DNA of 56,302 nt from a virus. Below are positions 21,563 to 38,597 of the stretch, in pieces. How positions within the stretch are numbered: the first letter of the stretch is position 1; each line of letters begins with the position of its first letter. The stretch lies in UHGV virus genome UHGV-0090450, one strand, 5' to 3'. Both the position numbers and the translations under genes were made by a program. Under the pieces are notes generated by a model. It saw only the letters and a program-made list of their open reading frames with translations, searched no databases and was not told the DNA's origin.

Positions 21563-21733
21563 ATGTTTGTCAAACCTGTTAAAGGGCGGTCAGTGCCTGA
21601 CCCTGCCCGCGGCGACCTTTTGCCCGCCGAAGGGCGAAATGTTGACGAGAACAACTACTGGCTGCGCCGTGAAGCAGCGGGTGATATCCGGCGCGTGAAT
21701 AAAAAGGTGAACACCGATGACGATAAGCTTTAA
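21563..21733 (+). CDS. small protein (56 aa, MFVKP..., Mu gp38/DUF2635-like) not in ORF track
   Basis: ATG at 21563, open to TAA at 21731-21733, overlaps sheath start. Confidence 0.5.
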   Translation: MFVKPVKGRSVPDPARGDLLPAEGRNVDENNYWLRREAAGDIRRVNKKVNTDDDKL

Positions 21734-23213
21734 CACCATTCCGTCGAATACGCTGGTTCCGTTGTTTTATGCGGAAATGGATAACCAGGCGGCGAATACT
21801 GCACAGGACAGCGGAGCATCGCTGCTGATTGGTCATGCCAATAACGGTGCAGAGATTGTTGCCAACAGTCTGGTACTGATGCCGTCGGCAGACTATGCAC
21901 GCCAGATTTGTGGTGCGGGAAGTCAGCTGGCGCGTATGGTCGAGGCTTATCGCCAGACCGACCCGTTTGGCGAGCTGTATGTGATTGCCGTTCCGGAAGC
22001 CACAGGAGCGGCGGCAACGGTTACGCTGACGGTGACCGGGGCGGCAACCGAAACCGGCACGGTGAATGTTTATGTGGGACGTACCCGCGTGCAGGCACCG
22101 GTGACCAACGGCGATAACGTCGCGACGATTGCCAGCAGTATCAAAGATGCCATTAATGCCGTTCCGGCCCTGCCGTTTACGGCCTCATCTTCGGCAGGCG
22201 TGGTCATGCTGACCGCGCGTCATAAGGGGCTTTGCGGGAATGAAATTCCTGTCAGCCTCAATTACTACGGCTTCGGTGGGGGCGAAGTGCTGCCAGCAGG
22301 CGTACAGATTGCCGTGGCGACGGGGACCACCGGAACGGGCGCTCCGGTTCTCACCGGCGCGGTAGCTGCAATGGCGGATGAGCCGTTTGATTATATCGGT
22401 CTGCCGTTCAACGACACGGCCTCCCTTAACACGCTGGTGACCGAGATGAACGATACCAGCGGTCGCTGGAGCTATGCGCGTCAGCTGTATGGCCATGTGT
22501 ATACGGCAAAGATCGGCACGCTGTCAGAACTGGTGACCGCAGGTGACCAGTTTAACCAGCAGCACATTACCCTGGCGGGGTACGAAAAAGACACCCAGAC
22601 GCCTGCCGATGAGCTGGCGGCAAGCCGTACCGCCCGCGCAGCGGTGTTTATCCGCAACGATCCGGCACGTCCCACGCAGACCGGTGAGCTGGTGGGTATG
22701 CTGCCTGCGCCGAAGGGGAAACGGTTCACGATGACCGAACAACAGACCCTGCTGTCTCATGGCGTGGCAACGGCGTATGTCGAAAGCGGGGTACTGCGCA
22801 TTCAGCGTGATGTCACCACGTACAGGAAAAACGCTTACGGGGTTGCGGATAACAGCTACCTCGACAGCGAGACGCTGCATACCAGTGCGTATGTACTGCG
22901 CAAACTGAAATCCGTCATTACCAGTAAGTACGGGCGTCACAAGCTTGCCAGCGACGGTACCCGCTTTGGTCCCGGTCAGGCGATTGTCACCCCGGCGGTG
23001 ATCAAAGGGGAACTGCTGGCAACCTACCGTCAGCTTGAGCGTGCGGGGATCGTGGAAAACTACGAACTGTTTAAGCAGTACCTGGTTGTGGAGCGTGATG
23101 CCAGCGATTCGAACCGCCTGAACACGCTGTTCCCGCCTGACTATGTTAACCAGTTGCGTGTCTTTGCCGTGGTTAACCAGTTCCGTCTTCAGTATTCAGA
23201 GGAGTCTGCATAA
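21717..23213 (+). CDS. tail sheath protein (Mu L-like)
   Basis: 498 aa, followed by tube gene. Confidence 0.9.
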   Translation: MTISFNTIPSNTLVPLFYAEMDNQAANTAQDSGASLLIGHANNGAEIVANSLVLMPSADYARQICGAGSQLARMVEAYRQTDPFGELYVIAVPEATGAAATVTLTVTGAATETGTVNVYVGRTRVQAPVTNGDNVATIASSIKDAINAVPALPFTASSSAGVVMLTARHKGLCGNEIPVSLNYYGFGGGEVLPAGVQIAVATGTTGTGAPVLTGAVAAMADEPFDYIGLPFNDTASLNTLVTEMNDTSGRWSYARQLYGHVYTAKIGTLSELVTAGDQFNQQHITLAGYEKDTQTPADELAASRTARAAVFIRNDPARPTQTGELVGMLPAPKGKRFTMTEQQTLLSHGVATAYVESGVLRIQRDVTTYRKNAYGVADNSYLDSETLHTSAYVLRKLKSVITSKYGRHKLASDGTRFGPGQAIVTPAVIKGELLATYRQLERAGIVENYELFKQYLVVERDASDSNRLNTLFPPDYVNQLRVFAVVNQFRLQYSEESA

Positions 23214-23569
23214 TGGCCCGTATCGGGGGAACCTGTTATTTCAAAATTGACGGTCAGCAGCTATCGCTGACCGGCGGCATTGAGGTGCCCATGAACAGGA
23301 CGGTCAATGATGACATCATCGGCCTGGACGGTTCAGTGGACCGCAAGGAAACTCACCGTGCGCCTTATGTCAAAGGGACCTTCAAGGTGCCGAAGAATTT
23401 TCCGGTGAGCAAAATCACCTCGTCTGATGAGATGACCATCACTGCCGAGCTGGCGAACGGTCAGGTCTATGTACTGTCGTCCGCCTGGCTGCACGGCGAA
23501 GCGAACCATAATGCCGAAGAAGGCACGGTTGATCTTGAGTTCCACGGTGAAGAAGGGGATTACCAGTAA
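23213..23569 (+). CDS. tail tube protein (Mu M-like)
   Basis: 118 aa directly after sheath. Confidence 0.85.
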   Translation: MARIGGTCYFKIDGQQLSLTGGIEVPMNRTVNDDIIGLDGSVDRKETHRAPYVKGTFKVPKNFPVSKITSSDEMTITAELANGQVYVLSSAWLHGEANHNAEEGTVDLEFHGEEGDYQ

Positions 23570-23838
23570 TGAAAGAGCTTGAGTTAAAGAAACCGATTAT
23601 CGCTCATGGCGAGACACTCTCCGTACTGGAGTTTGATGAACCCACCGGGAAGGATGTCCGCGAGCTGGGGTATCCCTACCAGATGAATCAGGATGAGTCC
23701 GTCAGACTTCTGGCGCATGTGGTGTCGAAATACATTGTGCGGCTGGCGAAAGTGCCGCAAAGCTCTGTCGACCAGATGTCTCCGGCAGACCTGAATGCAG
23801 CGGCGTGGCTTGTGGCTGGTTTTTTCCTCCAGGCCTGA
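23569..23838 (+). CDS. tail assembly chaperone (short form)
   Basis: Small ORF between tube and tape measure. Confidence 0.7.
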   Translation: MKELELKKPIIAHGETLSVLEFDEPTGKDVRELGYPYQMNQDESVRLLAHVVSKYIVRLAKVPQSSVDQMSPADLNAAAWLVAGFFLQA

Positions 23839-23987
23839 CGGCTGAATACCTCACTGATCGCTTCTTTGACTGCGCCAGCTACTGGCGCATTAATCCCTTC
23901 GAATTGCTGAATATGCCGATCAGTGAAATTCCCTTGCTGGTCAGTCAGGCAAACAGGATAGAGCAGGAGAAACGCACACATGGCTGA
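23569..23987 (+). other. putative -1 programmed frameshift fusion product of the tail chaperone
   Basis: Slippery heptamer T-TTT-TTC at about 23821-23827; -1 frame (track ORF 23805-23987) stays open to the tape-measure start. Confidence 0.5.
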
Positions 23988-25812
23988 ATTTGAGCTTAAG
24001 GCGTTGATCACCGGTGTCGACAGGCTTTCTCCCGCGCTGTCGAAAATGCAAAAGAAAATCCGGGGATTTAAACGCCAGGCGGAAGAAGCGTCACAGGGTG
24101 GGCTGGCGCTTGGTGGCGGACTGGCAGCGGGTCTGACGCTTTCCCTGAAATCTTATGCCGATCAGGAAAACGCCGCCACCGGGCTGAAAGTCGCCATGAT
24201 GGATGCGAACGGCGAGGTTGGAAAGAGCTTTCAGGACATCAATAAACTGGCTATTGGCCTGGGTAACCAGCTACCCGGTACAACGGCTGATTTCCAGAAC
24301 ATGATGCAGATGCTGGTGCGTCAGGGGATCCCGGCAGAAAACATTCTTGGTGGTGTGGGTAAAGCGACAGCTTATCTTGCGGTACAACTGAAAAAAACAC
24401 CGGAAGCGGCTGCTGAGTTTGCTGCAAAGATGCAGGATGCTACCGGAACGGCCTCAGAAGACATGATGGGGCTGTTCGACACAATTCAGAAGGCGTTTTA
24501 TCTGGGCGTTGACGACACCAACATGTTGTCATTCTTCACTAAAACCAGCTCTGTTCTGAAGATGGTGAACAAGGACGGTCTTCAGGCTGCACAGAGTCTT
24601 GCCCCCATCAGCGTCATGATGGATCAGATGGGGATGAACGGGGAGTCGGCAGGTAATGCCCTGCGAAAAGTTATCCAGTCCGGATTAAGCGTTAAGAAAA
24701 TCAGGGACGTCAATAAAATCATGGCCCGCCAGAAACTCGGGGTACAGCTCGATTTTACTGATGGCAAAGGGAGTTTTGGCGGTCTTGATAACATGTTTAA
24801 GCAACTGGCAAAGCTGCGAAAACTTACCGACGTTAAGCGAACAGGTGTACTTAAGGCAATATTTGGTGATGATGCCGAAACCCTTCAGGTGGTCAATGCG
24901 CTGATCGATAAAGGAAAGGATGGCTACGATCAGATCCAGCAGAAGATGAATAAACAGGCCAGCCTGAATAAACGTGTTCAGGCTCAGCTTGGTACGCTGT
25001 CCAACCTGTGGGAGGCAATGACGGGGACCGCAACTAACGGCCTTGCGGCTATTGGCGGCGCATTTTCTGGTGACGCTAAGAACATCACGCAGTGGCTGGG
25101 GGAGTTGGGGGAGAAATTCACGAAGTTTGCGGATGAAAATCCCCGGGTTATTCGCGGCGTCGTCGGGCTTGCTGCCGGTCTTGCGATTCTGAAACTGGGA
25201 TTGATGGGCGTTGGCGGTGCCATCAGTATTGTCAGCAGGATCATGTCGATGACGCCGATTGGCATGATTGCGACGGCGATAGCCCTGGCTGCGGGATTAA
25301 TTATCACTAACTGGGATGTTGTCGGACCTTATTTTAAGAAACTCTGGGAAACCATTGGTCCTTATTTTGAGGCTGGCTGGGAACTCCTTAAGAAAGTTTT
25401 TGCCTGGTCGCCGCTGGGGATGGTGATCAATAACTGGGGGCCGGTTGTTAAGTGGTTTCAGGATATGTGGGACAAGCTGAAGCCAATTATTGAGTGGTTT
25501 ACCGACAGTTCCGGTGACACGGTCGATGCCATTAACTCTGCGCAGTGGGGCGCGGGTGCTTATGATGCTTATGGGACGGGAATACCGGCGCGGGGATACA
25601 CACCTTATCCGGCGGTGGATCTGGCTCAGTCAAACAACGCCTCCGATGCCACAGCCCCGAATCCCTTCATGATTAACAAAGCTTCTGCGCCAAAAGTTGA
25701 TGGTGAGATCAAGGTCTCTTTTGTGAATTCGCCTCCGGGTATGCGGGTTATGGAAACACGTTCTAGTGACATTGATATTAATCACGATGTTGGGTACACC
25801 AGATTTAGGTAA
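23980..25812 (+). CDS. tail tape measure protein
   Basis: 610 aa, Ala/Gly-rich, hydrophobic central region. Confidence 0.9.
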   Translation: MAEFELKALITGVDRLSPALSKMQKKIRGFKRQAEEASQGGLALGGGLAAGLTLSLKSYADQENAATGLKVAMMDANGEVGKSFQDINKLAIGLGNQLPGTTADFQNMMQMLVRQGIPAENILGGVGKATAYLAVQLKKTPEAAAEFAAKMQDATGTASEDMMGLFDTIQKAFYLGVDDTNMLSFFTKTSSVLKMVNKDGLQAAQSLAPISVMMDQMGMNGESAGNALRKVIQSGLSVKKIRDVNKIMARQKLGVQLDFTDGKGSFGGLDNMFKQLAKLRKLTDVKRTGVLKAIFGDDAETLQVVNALIDKGKDGYDQIQQKMNKQASLNKRVQAQLGTLSNLWEAMTGTATNGLAAIGGAFSGDAKNITQWLGELGEKFTKFADENPRVIRGVVGLAAGLAILKLGLMGVGGAISIVSRIMSMTPIGMIATAIALAAGLIITNWDVVGPYFKKLWETIGPYFEAGWELLKKVFAWSPLGMVINNWGPVVKWFQDMWDKLKPIIEWFTDSSGDTVDAINSAQWGAGAYDAYGTGIPARGYTPYPAVDLAQSNNASDATAPNPFMINKASAPKVDGEIKVSFVNSPPGMRVMETRSSDIDINHDVGYTRFR

Positions 25813-25844: not shown

Positions 25845-26291
25845 TTACTGTGCGAACACGCAATTTCGGCCTGATGGGGAGCCGACAATTCTGGACATTT
25901 TTTCGCAAATAACAGTTACCTGTTCTCCTTTTTTAAGAGCAGCAGCTGTTGATTTTTCAGAGTCTTGCATCTCCATTCTTGCTGGCATGAATTCATTTTC
26001 AGTTCTGAATTTAATAATTATAGAGTCAGTAAAGTCCTTATCAATGGATTGTACGATACCTCTAACGGCGATTAATTTACCTTTTAACTGTTCATCGGTA
26101 GCGACTTCATTTTCTTCATACTCTTTAAACAGCTGTCGAGCAGTAGTGTTGTAGATTTCTTTTTGCGGTGCCGCAGCTTCCGTATCGGATGAGTATGAAG
26201 AATTAGAGCCTTTATCGTTATTGCCTGCAAAATATCCAATAATCACCAACCCGATGAAAATATATAAAATCCATTTTAATAATTTCTTCAT
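25845..26291 (-). CDS. membrane-anchored OB-fold protein (tRNA_anti-like family character), antisense moron
   Basis: N-terminal TM anchor, segment LFKEYEENEVATDEQLKGKLIAVRGIVQSIDKD; AT-rich. Confidence 0.6.
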   Translation of the reverse strand: MKKLLKWILYIFIGLVIIGYFAGNNDKGSNSSYSSDTEAAAPQKEIYNTTARQLFKEYEENEVATDEQLKGKLIAVRGIVQSIDKDFTDSIIIKFRTENEFMPARMEMQDSEKSTAAALKKGEQVTVICEKMSRIVGSPSGRNCVFAQ

Positions 26292-34073: not shown

Positions 34074-34623
34074 AACGAACCTCTTTTAATAAAGTCAAGT
34101 GATAATGAAAGATAAATATTGTAAACGAAAAAACACTGGACTGGAACATATATCTCTGCTTGTAATTTACCCAAGATAATTTTACTAACGCAGTCATAAT
34201 TCGTTCATGTATACCAGATGAAAGTACATGTTCTATGAAATAGGGTTTTGCCTGGAGTTTGAAGGTTTTTAACGATTATACCTGTTTAATCGACTCCCCA
34301 TGTTTTTTGACATTATCCACCGCACACGATACTGGATGCCAGGTAAACTGATTTGCTGGCATAAAGTCACTGAGAATTTTTTACCAACAATATCTTGCCA
34401 CATCTTTTCCCGCACAGTTTCGGCAATAGAATCAGCGGGCAGCGGTCATCAATATTCACCAGACATTGATCTGCCGCACTATCTGACCGGTGTCCTGCTG
34501 AGAATACTAATTTCTTTTTTTGCAAGTGCTGTCCAATCATGATTGGGGGGGGCCGGCGGAGTTGAAACCGCAGGTACGTTGTATGCAATAACGTGCTGCG
34601 GTTTAATCTTATCAATTGAATAC

Positions 34624-35493
<870 letters not shown>

Positions 35494-36032: not shown

Positions 36033-38597
36033 TTATTTCATAAGAGTGCGCCTTGTTTTGATCTGATCACGCCATTCTTTTAACGTGCTTATATCCGCTC
36101 GCAGCTCCTTATACTCTGGTATAGAAGCTGGCATTTCCGTCGACTGGCTGTGCTCATAACAGCTGTATTTAGTCATGAGGCTTTCAATCAATTTACAGTC
36201 TTCTGCAGTTATATCCTGTACATACGGAAGCCTTCCGTCAGTCTGGATTCCTCTTCTATGACGTATAACTACCCCGTTAAATAAATCCTCCTCGACAGAG
36301 CGCTCAATGAGTTTACGAAAATCACTGCAAACGCCCTGAGCTAGCCCACGGAAAGCTATTGCGCCATGTTCTTGTCCAGATTTGTAGGCTGAATCCAGCC
36401 TAGTCAGGAGAATGTTATTCGCTGATTTGGTATTCGCGTTCCAGACCTCCTGATCGGCAGGATGACCGGCAGCTCCATCAAATGATTCAATACATATCGA
36501 TTTATGGTGCTGCTTTTTCCATGGGTCTCCCTCTTTTCTTGCCAAATCTTCAATTACCCCGTAAAGGGAAAGTCTGTGCGTTAAAATAATCACCTGACGC
36601 GATTTAGCGAGTTCAACGAGGCGTTTAGCAACTTGCCACTCAAATTCGTGGTCCAGAGATGAAATAGGGTCATCAAAAATGAAGGGAGCAGATCCCGGCC
36701 GATCAGTGACATCGGCTAAAAATGCAGCCAGTGAGATAATCCTACGTTCTCCTTCACTCAGAACATTGTGCAACTTGTCCCGTTGCGCTCCTTTTAGCTG
36801 TAGCTGATGCAAAACTTTCGCATTTTCTGTCCTTATTTTCACAAGCTCAACCTGCAAGCCAGGAGCACCAAGAACTTTCAGCTCACGGTTGAATCTGGCG
36901 GCATAGGCTTCAGTGACAACTTTCTGAGTAATATCAGCAGATTTAGTTGATAATGCACGGGAAGCGGCAAGTGATATCCATTCATCAAATTCACTTCTTT
37001 TTTTTAAGCGTTCAACTTCGGCTCTGATAGCCTCGGCTTGACCAGATAACCACCGTCGAGCTTCGGCTTCGTTTTTATTCTGCAAAGCTTTGGCCCTGTC
37101 AAATCCTGCTGCATCTCTCTGAAACTGGTCGGCTTCTCCCTGAAGCCGGTCGCGGTAAGTACGTAAATTCGTGATAGCTTCGGTCAAATCAGCCAAAGGA
37201 ACTGCTGTCTGGGTAGCTTCATGCTCGGTGAGCGCCTGACGACTGAGGGATGCGGAACTCCATATTCCCGTTAGGTATTTATTCCATTCTTCCTGAATCG
37301 CAGCGCTTGCACAAAGGGTAGCAATTTCGGCCATTGAGGGAGGAATAGTTATCGAGCCGATTGCCTGAGCATACAGACACTCAGCTGTGGCAGCATCGCT
37401 CTCAAGACGTGATTGCACGAAAGCCTCAAGATTGTTCAGACGCTGCTGAGCTTCTGCGGATAGAGCCTGATTGCATAAAACACAACAGGCCTCATCTGTT
37501 GCCGGAAAAGCCTTGTCTGGATAGGGCGTCCTTGAATAGTCGCGAGCAGCTTCCCACATGGCACGCCATACAGGTGAGCCAATGCCCTCCAGTGAGTCAT
37601 CTTTTATTCGTTCACTATCAAGCGCAATTCTGCGCTTGCTGATGCTATCAGCACGTAACGCCCGAAGACAGTCGATATTTGACTGGCTAAAAGTCTTTGC
37701 CGTCTGCTCAAGTTGAGTGATGATCTGATTAACAGATGTTTGAACCGCAAGCTTGTTGCGGGCGTTCTCAGCCGGATCTTTAACGTTCAGACGTTCATTC
37801 AAGGCACTAAGCGCTTGCTCATCCGCCTCAGACCAGTTTGTCATCACTGCGATATTTTCGGTAGTTGCTGTACTTAGTGCACTATAGGTAGTGGCAATAT
37901 GACAACGCTGATAAACAGCAGGTAGTTCGGGAAGTTTGCTGACTAGCTGAGACTGTTCATCCCTTAGCTTATCGCGTACCAGTTTCAGGTACTGGGCCAG
38001 TTTTTCAAAAAGCCCCACCACACTCGGTATATAGGTAGCGGCACTCTCTTGGGTGAGATAATGCAGAGATTCATCCGTATCGAAGATATCAATGCCTTTC
38101 AGGGCATCGATCGGAGGGCTGTCAGCTGACCAGTCCGCTTCAGCATTGCTTTCATTCGCTTTCCATTTAATGTGGCAACTTCGCTCAGGTGGTAAGGGAT
38201 TAAAGACATTAGAGTTAAGCTGAGCTGCTCTAGGTTTTCCGGACATACGTTTGAGCACACGCGTATAGCTGGATTTACCGGACCCGTTATGGCCGTAAAT
38301 AACAGTCAGATTCCCTGAACCGAAATCGAGCGGTAAACGTGGAGCAAGGTTCTCAATACCCTTTACAGCTTCGATCCGACTTAACCTGAGTGTTCCAGAT
38401 CCCTGCTCTGCAGATGCTAGGCCTAGGAAAGTATGGTGTGTCGTTTTTGTTCGTCCATGGGGGGTCTTGAGTAAAGCAATAACCTGCTGAAGGTCATTAT
38501 CTGTCAGGTCATCCTGTTGAATGAGTCTTTCCGCTAGTTCCTGAAACCAGTCCTGCTGCTTTAACAGCCAGGCTATGATATCGGCCTTTACATCCAT
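36033..38597 (-). CDS. RloC-like ABC/SMC-type ATPase with coiled-coil insertion and CxxC zinc hook (AAA_13-like)
   Basis: Walker A VIYGHNGSGKSS, signature LSEGERRIISLAAFLA, Walker B FIFDDPISSLD, H-loop ILTHR, CVLC within the roughly 500-aa insertion; RBS AGGAGGG. Confidence 0.7.
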   Translation of the reverse strand: MDVKADIIAWLLKQQDWFQELAERLIQQDDLTDNDLQQVIALLKTPHGRTKTTHHTFLGLASAEQGSGTLRLSRIEAVKGIENLAPRLPLDFGSGNLTVIYGHNGSGKSSYTRVLKRMSGKPRAAQLNSNVFNPLPPERSCHIKWKANESNAEADWSADSPPIDALKGIDIFDTDESLHYLTQESAATYIPSVVGLFEKLAQYLKLVRDKLRDEQSQLVSKLPELPAVYQRCHIATTYSALSTATTENIAVMTNWSEADEQALSALNERLNVKDPAENARNKLAVQTSVNQIITQLEQTAKTFSQSNIDCLRALRADSISKRRIALDSERIKDDSLEGIGSPVWRAMWEAARDYSRTPYPDKAFPATDEACCVLCNQALSAEAQQRLNNLEAFVQSRLESDAATAECLYAQAIGSITIPPSMAEIATLCASAAIQEEWNKYLTGIWSSASLSRQALTEHEATQTAVPLADLTEAITNLRTYRDRLQGEADQFQRDAAGFDRAKALQNKNEAEARRWLSGQAEAIRAEVERLKKRSEFDEWISLAASRALSTKSADITQKVVTEAYAARFNRELKVLGAPGLQVELVKIRTENAKVLHQLQLKGAQRDKLHNVLSEGERRIISLAAFLADVTDRPGSAPFIFDDPISSLDHEFEWQVAKRLVELAKSRQVIILTHRLSLYGVIEDLARKEGDPWKKQHHKSICIESFDGAAGHPADQEVWNANTKSANNILLTRLDSAYKSGQEHGAIAFRGLAQGVCSDFRKLIERSVEEDLFNGVVIRHRRGIQTDGRLPYVQDITAEDCKLIESLMTKYSCYEHSQSTEMPASIPEYKELRADISTLKEWRDQIKTRRTLMK

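Follow-up and report, generated by a model that had tools for sequence, protein, structure and literature searches.

The production of two tail assembly chaperones through frameshifting is a known, textbook instance of recoding. In the model described for phage lambda, G coats the tape measure protein, T serves to bring in the tube protein, it matters in which ratio the two products are made, and both G and GT are absent from virions (PMC5009743). In phage P2, the products E and E+E' are related by a -1 frameshift (Christie et al. 2002 and Xu et al. 2004, as cited in PMC3091744), and a -2 frameshift has been reported for gp41, the chaperone of phage Mu (PMC5009743, PMC2628397).

In this study we examined the tail chaperone gene in a 56,302-nucleotide stretch of viral DNA (UHGV virus genome UHGV-0090450), hereafter referred to as the window. 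The gene very probably encodes the tail chaperone of a prophage that resembles SfV and has a contractile tail of Mu type, and two products would be made from it via a -1 ribosomal slip at T_TTT_TTC. Among experimentally tested homologues, the E/E+E' pair of P2 is the closest, and constitutes the true counterpart of the chaperone pair of the window. The main value of these results lies in annotation, and they add nothing new in principle on recoding.

Genomic context of the chaperone gene

Judged by its sequence, the window is an SfV/SfII/SfI-like prophage of Escherichia coli, displaying 99-100% identity to SfV/SfII/SfI-like phages of Shigella and E. coli. The one E. coli chromosome examined, among several listed, matched the window at 100%, and the prophage segment is carried by about 1,090 of 5,426 complete E. 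coli genomes. The chaperone region comprises the following features:

21717-23213 (+): tail sheath gene, Mu gpL-like (PF04984, PF17482, phrog_165); a sheath is also annotated in SfV and in ON470584
23213-23569 (+): tail tube gene, Mu gpM-like (PF10618, E=2e-33; phrog_185)
23569-23838 (+): short chaperone product 'G', 89 aa, zero frame (PF10109, Phage_TAC_7)
23820-23826 (+): slippery heptamer T_TTT_TTC, of the form X_XXY_YYZ in the zero frame, within the codons GGT TTT TTC
23826-23987 (+): 'T' extension, an open frame of 53 codons plus TGA in the -1 frame (phrog_32181, E=7e-41)
23965-23969 (+): Shine-Dalgarno-like AGGAG of the tape-measure gene, 10 nt before its ATG and inside the end of T, in a purine-rich block conserved in the alignment
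23980-25812 (+): tape measure gene, 610 aa (PF10145, phrog_28, phrog_17727)

The chaperone gene lies between the tube and tape-measure genes, as in pairs of the lambda G/GT type, and its ATG overlaps the stop codon of the tube gene as TAATG. The flanking genes are homologues of Mu gp38, L, M, gp42, gp43 and gp44, the gp43-like and gp44-like baseplate genes being located downstream of the tape measure. On the plus strand, no promoter-like or terminator-like sites were found from the sheath start to the tape-measure start.

Anatomy of the two reading frames

As read from the sequence, the chaperone ORF extends from the ATG at 23569 to the TGA at 23836-23838 and codes for 89 aa, its final codons being GGT TTT TTC CTC CAG GCC TGA and its C-terminal peptide ...WLVAGFFLQA. 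After a -1 slip the first codon would be CCT at 23826, from which 53 codons remain open up to the TGA at 23985-23987; in its full extent the open -1 frame covers 23697-23987. The predicted G-T fusion (23569-23826 plus the extension) would therefore have 139 aa and contain the junction peptide ...WLVAGFFPPGLTAEYLTDR (longer form, VPQSSVDQMSPADLNAAAWLVAGFFPPGLTAEYLTDR). Its TGA overlaps the tape-measure ATG at 23980 by 8 nt (ATGGCTGA). These coordinates agree with the original prediction in the end of the short ORF at 23838 and in a -1 frame open to 23987 and adjoining the tape-measure start. The heptamer, which had been put at about 23821-23827, is present as predicted, one base further to the left.

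With 56.7 bits (cut-off 25), G was assigned to PF10109, 'Phage tail assembly chaperone proteins, E, or 41 or 14', a family to which P2 gpE and Mu gp41 also belong; residues 4-86 correspond to positions 2-78 of the 79 in the profile. PF10109 was the sole match in the window protein, from which the Gp41_Mu domain (PF23746) is absent. The T extension matches a PHROGs family of 'unknown function', phrog_32181, and therefore recurs as a protein in phage genomes. No match was obtained with NCBIfam models for G, GT or T, nor in a profile search against PDB sequences (best E about 0.9), and PF06528 (Phage_P2_GpE), to which P2 E+E' matches with 76 bits, did not match the 53-aa extension at E<=1.

A model for the slip and its efficiency

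We propose that most ribosomes would translate 23569-23838 and release the 89-aa G, and that a minority, with two tRNA-Phe on UUU_UUC (23821-23826), would slip back one base and re-pair with U_UUU_UU. Such a tandem -1 slip would keep full pairing except for a G:U wobble in the A site, and the slipped ribosomes would continue from the CCT at 23826 to the TGA ending at 23987, giving a fusion of 139 aa. If the pair works as lambda G/GT and P2 E/E+E' do, the G part common to both products would coat the tape measure protein and the T part would recruit the tube protein, so that a tail of the correct length is polymerised; on this analogy, neither G nor G-T would be expected to stay in the virion. 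We infer that the slip is ribosomal, that its efficiency is probably in the percent range, and that G and T divide their labour, the chaperone function being modelled here on that of lambda.

In E. coli reporters, UUUUUUC gave 0.12% frameshifting with no stimulator, rising to 0.89% when the IS911 stimulator was present and to 7.6% with that of IS3, the corresponding values being 0.33%, 0.45% and 10.2% for UUUUUUU, and 0.12%, 0.25% and 0.77% for UUUUUUG, the motif of P2; the class H_HH.U_UU.Y is among the most efficient motifs in this species (PMC4066793). In these reporters UUUUUUC shifts at least as well as the UUUUUUG of P2. The efficiency at the site in the window could be low, the bare motif yielding only 0.12% in the reporter; a low efficiency of the bare motif is equally true of the verified site of P2.

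Conservation of the slip site across relatives

We scanned 128 sequences, comprising the window and 127 related loci, of which nine came from annotated phages and E. coli, 38 from one-genome-per-species contigs and 80 from IMG/VR. The heptamer occurred at the same position in 119 of the 128, as T_TTT_TTC in 100 and as T_TTT_TTT in 19, and in all 119 it coincided with Gly-Phe-Phe codons close to where the PF10109 domain ends, and no stop interrupted the -1 frame before the tape-measure start. Conservation of the slippery site in relatives was one of the points on which the original prediction had staked itself, and T_TTT_TTY was thus found to be conserved. Five more distant loci outside the motif filter, identified by hand in uncultured proteobacteria, Edwardsiella, Derxia (with G+C-rich sequence here) and Methylococcales, also carry the site. 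The length of the T run is six in the window and seven in a second clade, and the fusion measures 138-140 aa in all clades despite only 28-41% protein identity between them. Within the clade of the window, 10 diverged sequences share the block GGTTTTTTCCT without a single change; the Gly codon, which supplies the first T, is always GGT, whereas all four Ala codons occur at the position before it.

The exceptions among the 128 sequences were three decayed copies from insect endosymbionts and one IMG/VR variant. The former (L042, L044 and L046, from Candidatus Pantoea bathycoeliae and an Arsenophonus endosymbiont) have G broken up by indels and stop codons, and in one of them the loss of 1 nt at the T run leaves T in the +1 frame; all three are presumably prophage pseudogenes. 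The variant L125 (IMGVR_UViG_2585427757_000001, about 1749-1760) reads GGG TTT TTT CTC instead of GGT TTT TTC CTC. Both changes are synonymous in G, and by shifting the T6 run one base they remove the canonical heptamer (G_TTT_TTT); this could reflect a sequencing error, a site of low efficiency or a hint of transcriptional slippage.

A separate irregularity was observed in L123 (IMGVR_UViG_2541047860_000003), in which the T frame, past ...INPFELLN, stays open through about 500 codons of unrelated sequence, which indicates a deletion or rearrangement (or a misassembly) removing the end of T and the tape-measure start.

Selection on the extension

Beyond the G stop, mean pairwise variability in 10 diverged sequences was 0.215, 0.130 and 0.409 at the first, second and third codon positions of the -1 frame, and in the same alignment G in its own frame gave 0.173, 0.101 and 0.534. 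Since variability in the region coding for T only is highest at the third positions of the -1 frame, as in G, the T extension is under purifying selection as a protein. The motif (F/Y)(D/N)xAx(Y/F)W(R/K)xNP...RI is moreover common to the T extensions of clades that are only 28-41% identical.

RNA structure and a downstream hairpin

No conserved stimulator adjoining the site was found: the 45 nt directly 3' of it folded with a mean z of +0.27 relative to shuffled sequences in 29 relatives, folding across the slip site was no better than in shuffles, and the consensus fold of 13 relatives displayed no covariation. Three candidates were discarded. The segment 23827-23926 folds at z=-3.4, but its stable part starts at least 24 nt downstream. 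An upstream Shine-Dalgarno-like stimulator is absent from the window, and such sequences (GGGAGG, AAGGTG) are accidental in a few relatives and in P2. RNAalifold proposed a long-range pairing of UUCCU at the slip site with the tape-measure Shine-Dalgarno sequence about 140 nt away, which was set aside because both sides are conserved for other reasons and do not covary.

Inside T, a further structure was detected:

23871-23889 (+): 8-bp G+C-rich hairpin, UGCGCCAG-cua-CUGGCGCA, 45 nt 3' of the heptamer

Folding of the 29 nt around it (23866-23894) gave -14 kcal/mol (z=-5.1), and the hairpin is kept, without covariation, in all 13 sequences of the clade of the window, where synonymous variation is lowered at its codons. 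No counterpart was apparent in those sequences of the SfIV/phiP27/ST64B clade that were read. In the window the nucleotides of the hairpin also encode the most conserved peptide of T (CASYWR). Stimulators are usually spaced 5-9 nt from the heptamer. At 45 nt downstream the hairpin is too far away, and hence is probably not a canonical stimulator. It might instead act as a distal RNA element that sets the G:GT ratio (e.g. by pausing a leading ribosome so that the trailing one queues on the heptamer) or that tunes translation of the tape measure, a role we hold to be improbable and which, if true, would represent an unusual geometry for a bacterial frameshift signal.

Alternative explanations

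Different scenarios might account for the same arrangement. The heptamer and the open -1 frame could derive from the coding constraint on Gly-Phe-Phe together with chance, so that only the 89-aa protein matters. In-frame heptamers of the form X_XXY_YYZ are indeed common, with 74 occurrences in the 16,390 codons of the proxy genes of the window, the Phe-Phe motif is itself conserved as protein, and a stimulator was not found. Against this, at least 50 open -1 codons follow only three of the 74 heptamers, a product longer than the zero-frame one would result in two, and by our own rough estimate the joint expectation of a heptamer in the last six codons with at least 53 open codons after it is about 0.001. 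GGT TTT TTY is fixed across clades, though TTC TTC and GGN would encode the same residues, and past the G stop the -1 frame evolves as a protein and always ends at the tape-measure start. As far as sequence comparison reaches, the comparative data settle that the heptamer and the open -1 frame are not a product of chance, and we give the absence of recoding very little credence. It is no more credible that T is a separate small gene whose translation begins at a GTG of the -1 frame (23805), with no fusion being made, even though T is annotated as a 60-aa hypothetical protein in Escherichia phage vB_EcoM-689R6 (ON470584) and forms a PHROGs family of its own. That GTG is a by-product of a zero-frame Trp codon (GCG TGG), is not preceded by a Shine-Dalgarno sequence, and its position reads CTG in six of the 10 close relatives aligned. 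From the upstream stop to 15 codons past the heptamer, the T frame lacks any ATG, GTG or TTG in 21 of 29 distinct relatives, and no Shine-Dalgarno sequence for a T start was found in any of the 29. In several relatives the upstream stop of the T frame leaves only 15-21 nt of open sequence ahead of the heptamer, and in the clade of the window the first base of the G stop lies 10 nt beyond the heptamer's end. The nearness of both stops therefore places the switch of frame within about 30 nt around the heptamer, and independent initiation of T is, on the sequences compared, not viable.

The remaining scenario retains the fusion and changes the step at which the frame is altered: RNA polymerase would add one U on the T6 run, bringing G and T into one frame with no ribosomal shift. 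The site does contain a homopolymer, of six T in the window and seven in the second clade, and U7 is under-represented in each of the three frames of E. coli genes, a shortage for which transcriptional slippage has been held partly responsible (PMC4066793). The variant L125, in addition, keeps the T6 run but not the ribosomal phase. Every run that was read, however, consists of six or seven T, with none of at least eight among the loci examined, and runs of six to seven T slip poorly in E. coli RNA polymerase, which counts against this explanation. Of the 120 intact loci matching the T-motif pattern, furthermore, 119 keep the run in X_XXY_YYZ phase, and the homologous site of P2 is annotated and cited as translational (PMC3091744). 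We accordingly regard transcriptional slippage as unlikely, though less so than the two preceding scenarios, and a ribosomal -1 slip as the preferred reading. The proposal of a two-product chaperone made by -1 frameshifting is thus supported by gene position, membership in PF10109, a conserved in-phase heptamer, an extension under selection and the lack of a conserved start.

Comparison with P2, lambda and Mu

The N-terminal part of P2 gpE falls in PF10109, as in the window, and the slip codons of P2, GGT TTT TTG, occupy the same positions of the profile as GGT TTT TTC does here. The -1 shift at T_TTT_TTG is annotated in the P2 record (PMC3091744). The products are of similar size (91 and 142 aa in P2, 89 and 139 aa in the window), both systems show an 8-nt overlap between fusion stop and tape-measure ATG, and an adjacent stimulatory RNA structure is lacking in both, as reported for P2 (PMC3091744) and as found in the window. 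The two systems differ in the last base of the heptamer, which is G in P2, C in the window and T in sister clades, so that the A-site tRNA is Leu in P2 and Phe here. They also differ in the extension, which in the window has no PF06528 match and aligns weakly to E' (hhalign E=0.003, probability 11%), and in the surrounding tail genes, which are Mu-like in the window rather than P2-like.

The likeness to lambda gpG/gpGT is one of arrangement: the gene occupies the same position, between the major tail protein and tape-measure genes, and the two products share an N-terminus, with a -1 extension ending at the tape-measure gene. In contrast, no sequence similarity was detectable, the heptamer of lambda is a different one (G_GGA_AAG), and its tail is non-contractile.

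Mu gp41 matches PF10109 weakly (E=2.5e-5; 24.7 bits, just under the cut-off of 25). It differs from the window protein in its length (144-145 aa), in carrying PF23746 and in having no in-frame X_XXY_YYZ heptamer, and its extension lies in the +1/-2 frame, which in the window closes at 23845, after 16 codons. The placement of the chaperone in a Mu-like tail module, as originally proposed, therefore stands for the module, with its homologues of Mu gp38-44, but not for the recoding, which is P2-like where a -2 shift is reported for Mu. The direction and site of the frameshift would thus follow the chaperone lineage (P2 gpE-like, -1 at T_TTT_TTN) and not the Mu-like module.

Annotation of the predicted fusion in SfV-like phages

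An annotated fusion was not found in the SfV-like group. Every record examined lacks it, giving only the 89-aa protein or presenting the extension as a separate hypothetical gene; PGAP names only the 89-aa product, as 'phage tail assembly protein', and in the SfV record the chaperone is orf13, 'unknown'. The named database matches among the best 120 of 151 are all short, nearly all of 89 aa, e.g. 'phage tail assembly protein'. Three seeming in-frame, full-length fusions (P0001-P0003) were rejected as indel-ridden singletons from short contigs, probably resulting from assembly noise. Among the papers searched, none describing this frameshift in SfV-like phages was found. As a consequence, an essential tail protein is probably missing from the annotated proteomes of SfV, SfII, SfI and related phages, and from those of about 1,090 E. 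coli genomes.

Other genes in the window

Between the tape-measure and Mu gp43-like genes, an ORF of 148 aa on the opposite strand (25845-26291, minus strand) encodes a protein that is hydrophobic at its N-terminus and contains a tRNA_anti-like OB-fold domain (PF12869, E=3e-19). The ORF is directly followed by a terminator-like hairpin (25841-25820) and has the look of a moron that inserted into the tail operon.

A second in-frame heptamer close to a stop codon was observed in an 86-aa ORF with no family match (34367-34627, minus strand), in which A_AAA_AAT near 34376-34382 lies two codons before the stop and is followed by 35 open -1 codons; its occurrence is probably due to chance in A+T-rich DNA. 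Two further genes on the minus strand appear to be anti-phage defence cargo adjoining the prophage, namely a GIY-YIG protein matching the PADLOC defence gene PD-T4-3 (34624-35448, E=4e-140) and an 854-aa SMC/AAA_13 ATPase with a full-length match to the candidate defence system PDC-S06 (36033-38597, 1059 bits). Finally, a membrane acyltransferase of the Acyl_transf_3 family (PF01757; 33006-34073, minus strand), encoded in an A+T-rich stretch with three in-frame T7 runs, may be an O-antigen acetyltransferase of the serotype-converting kind.
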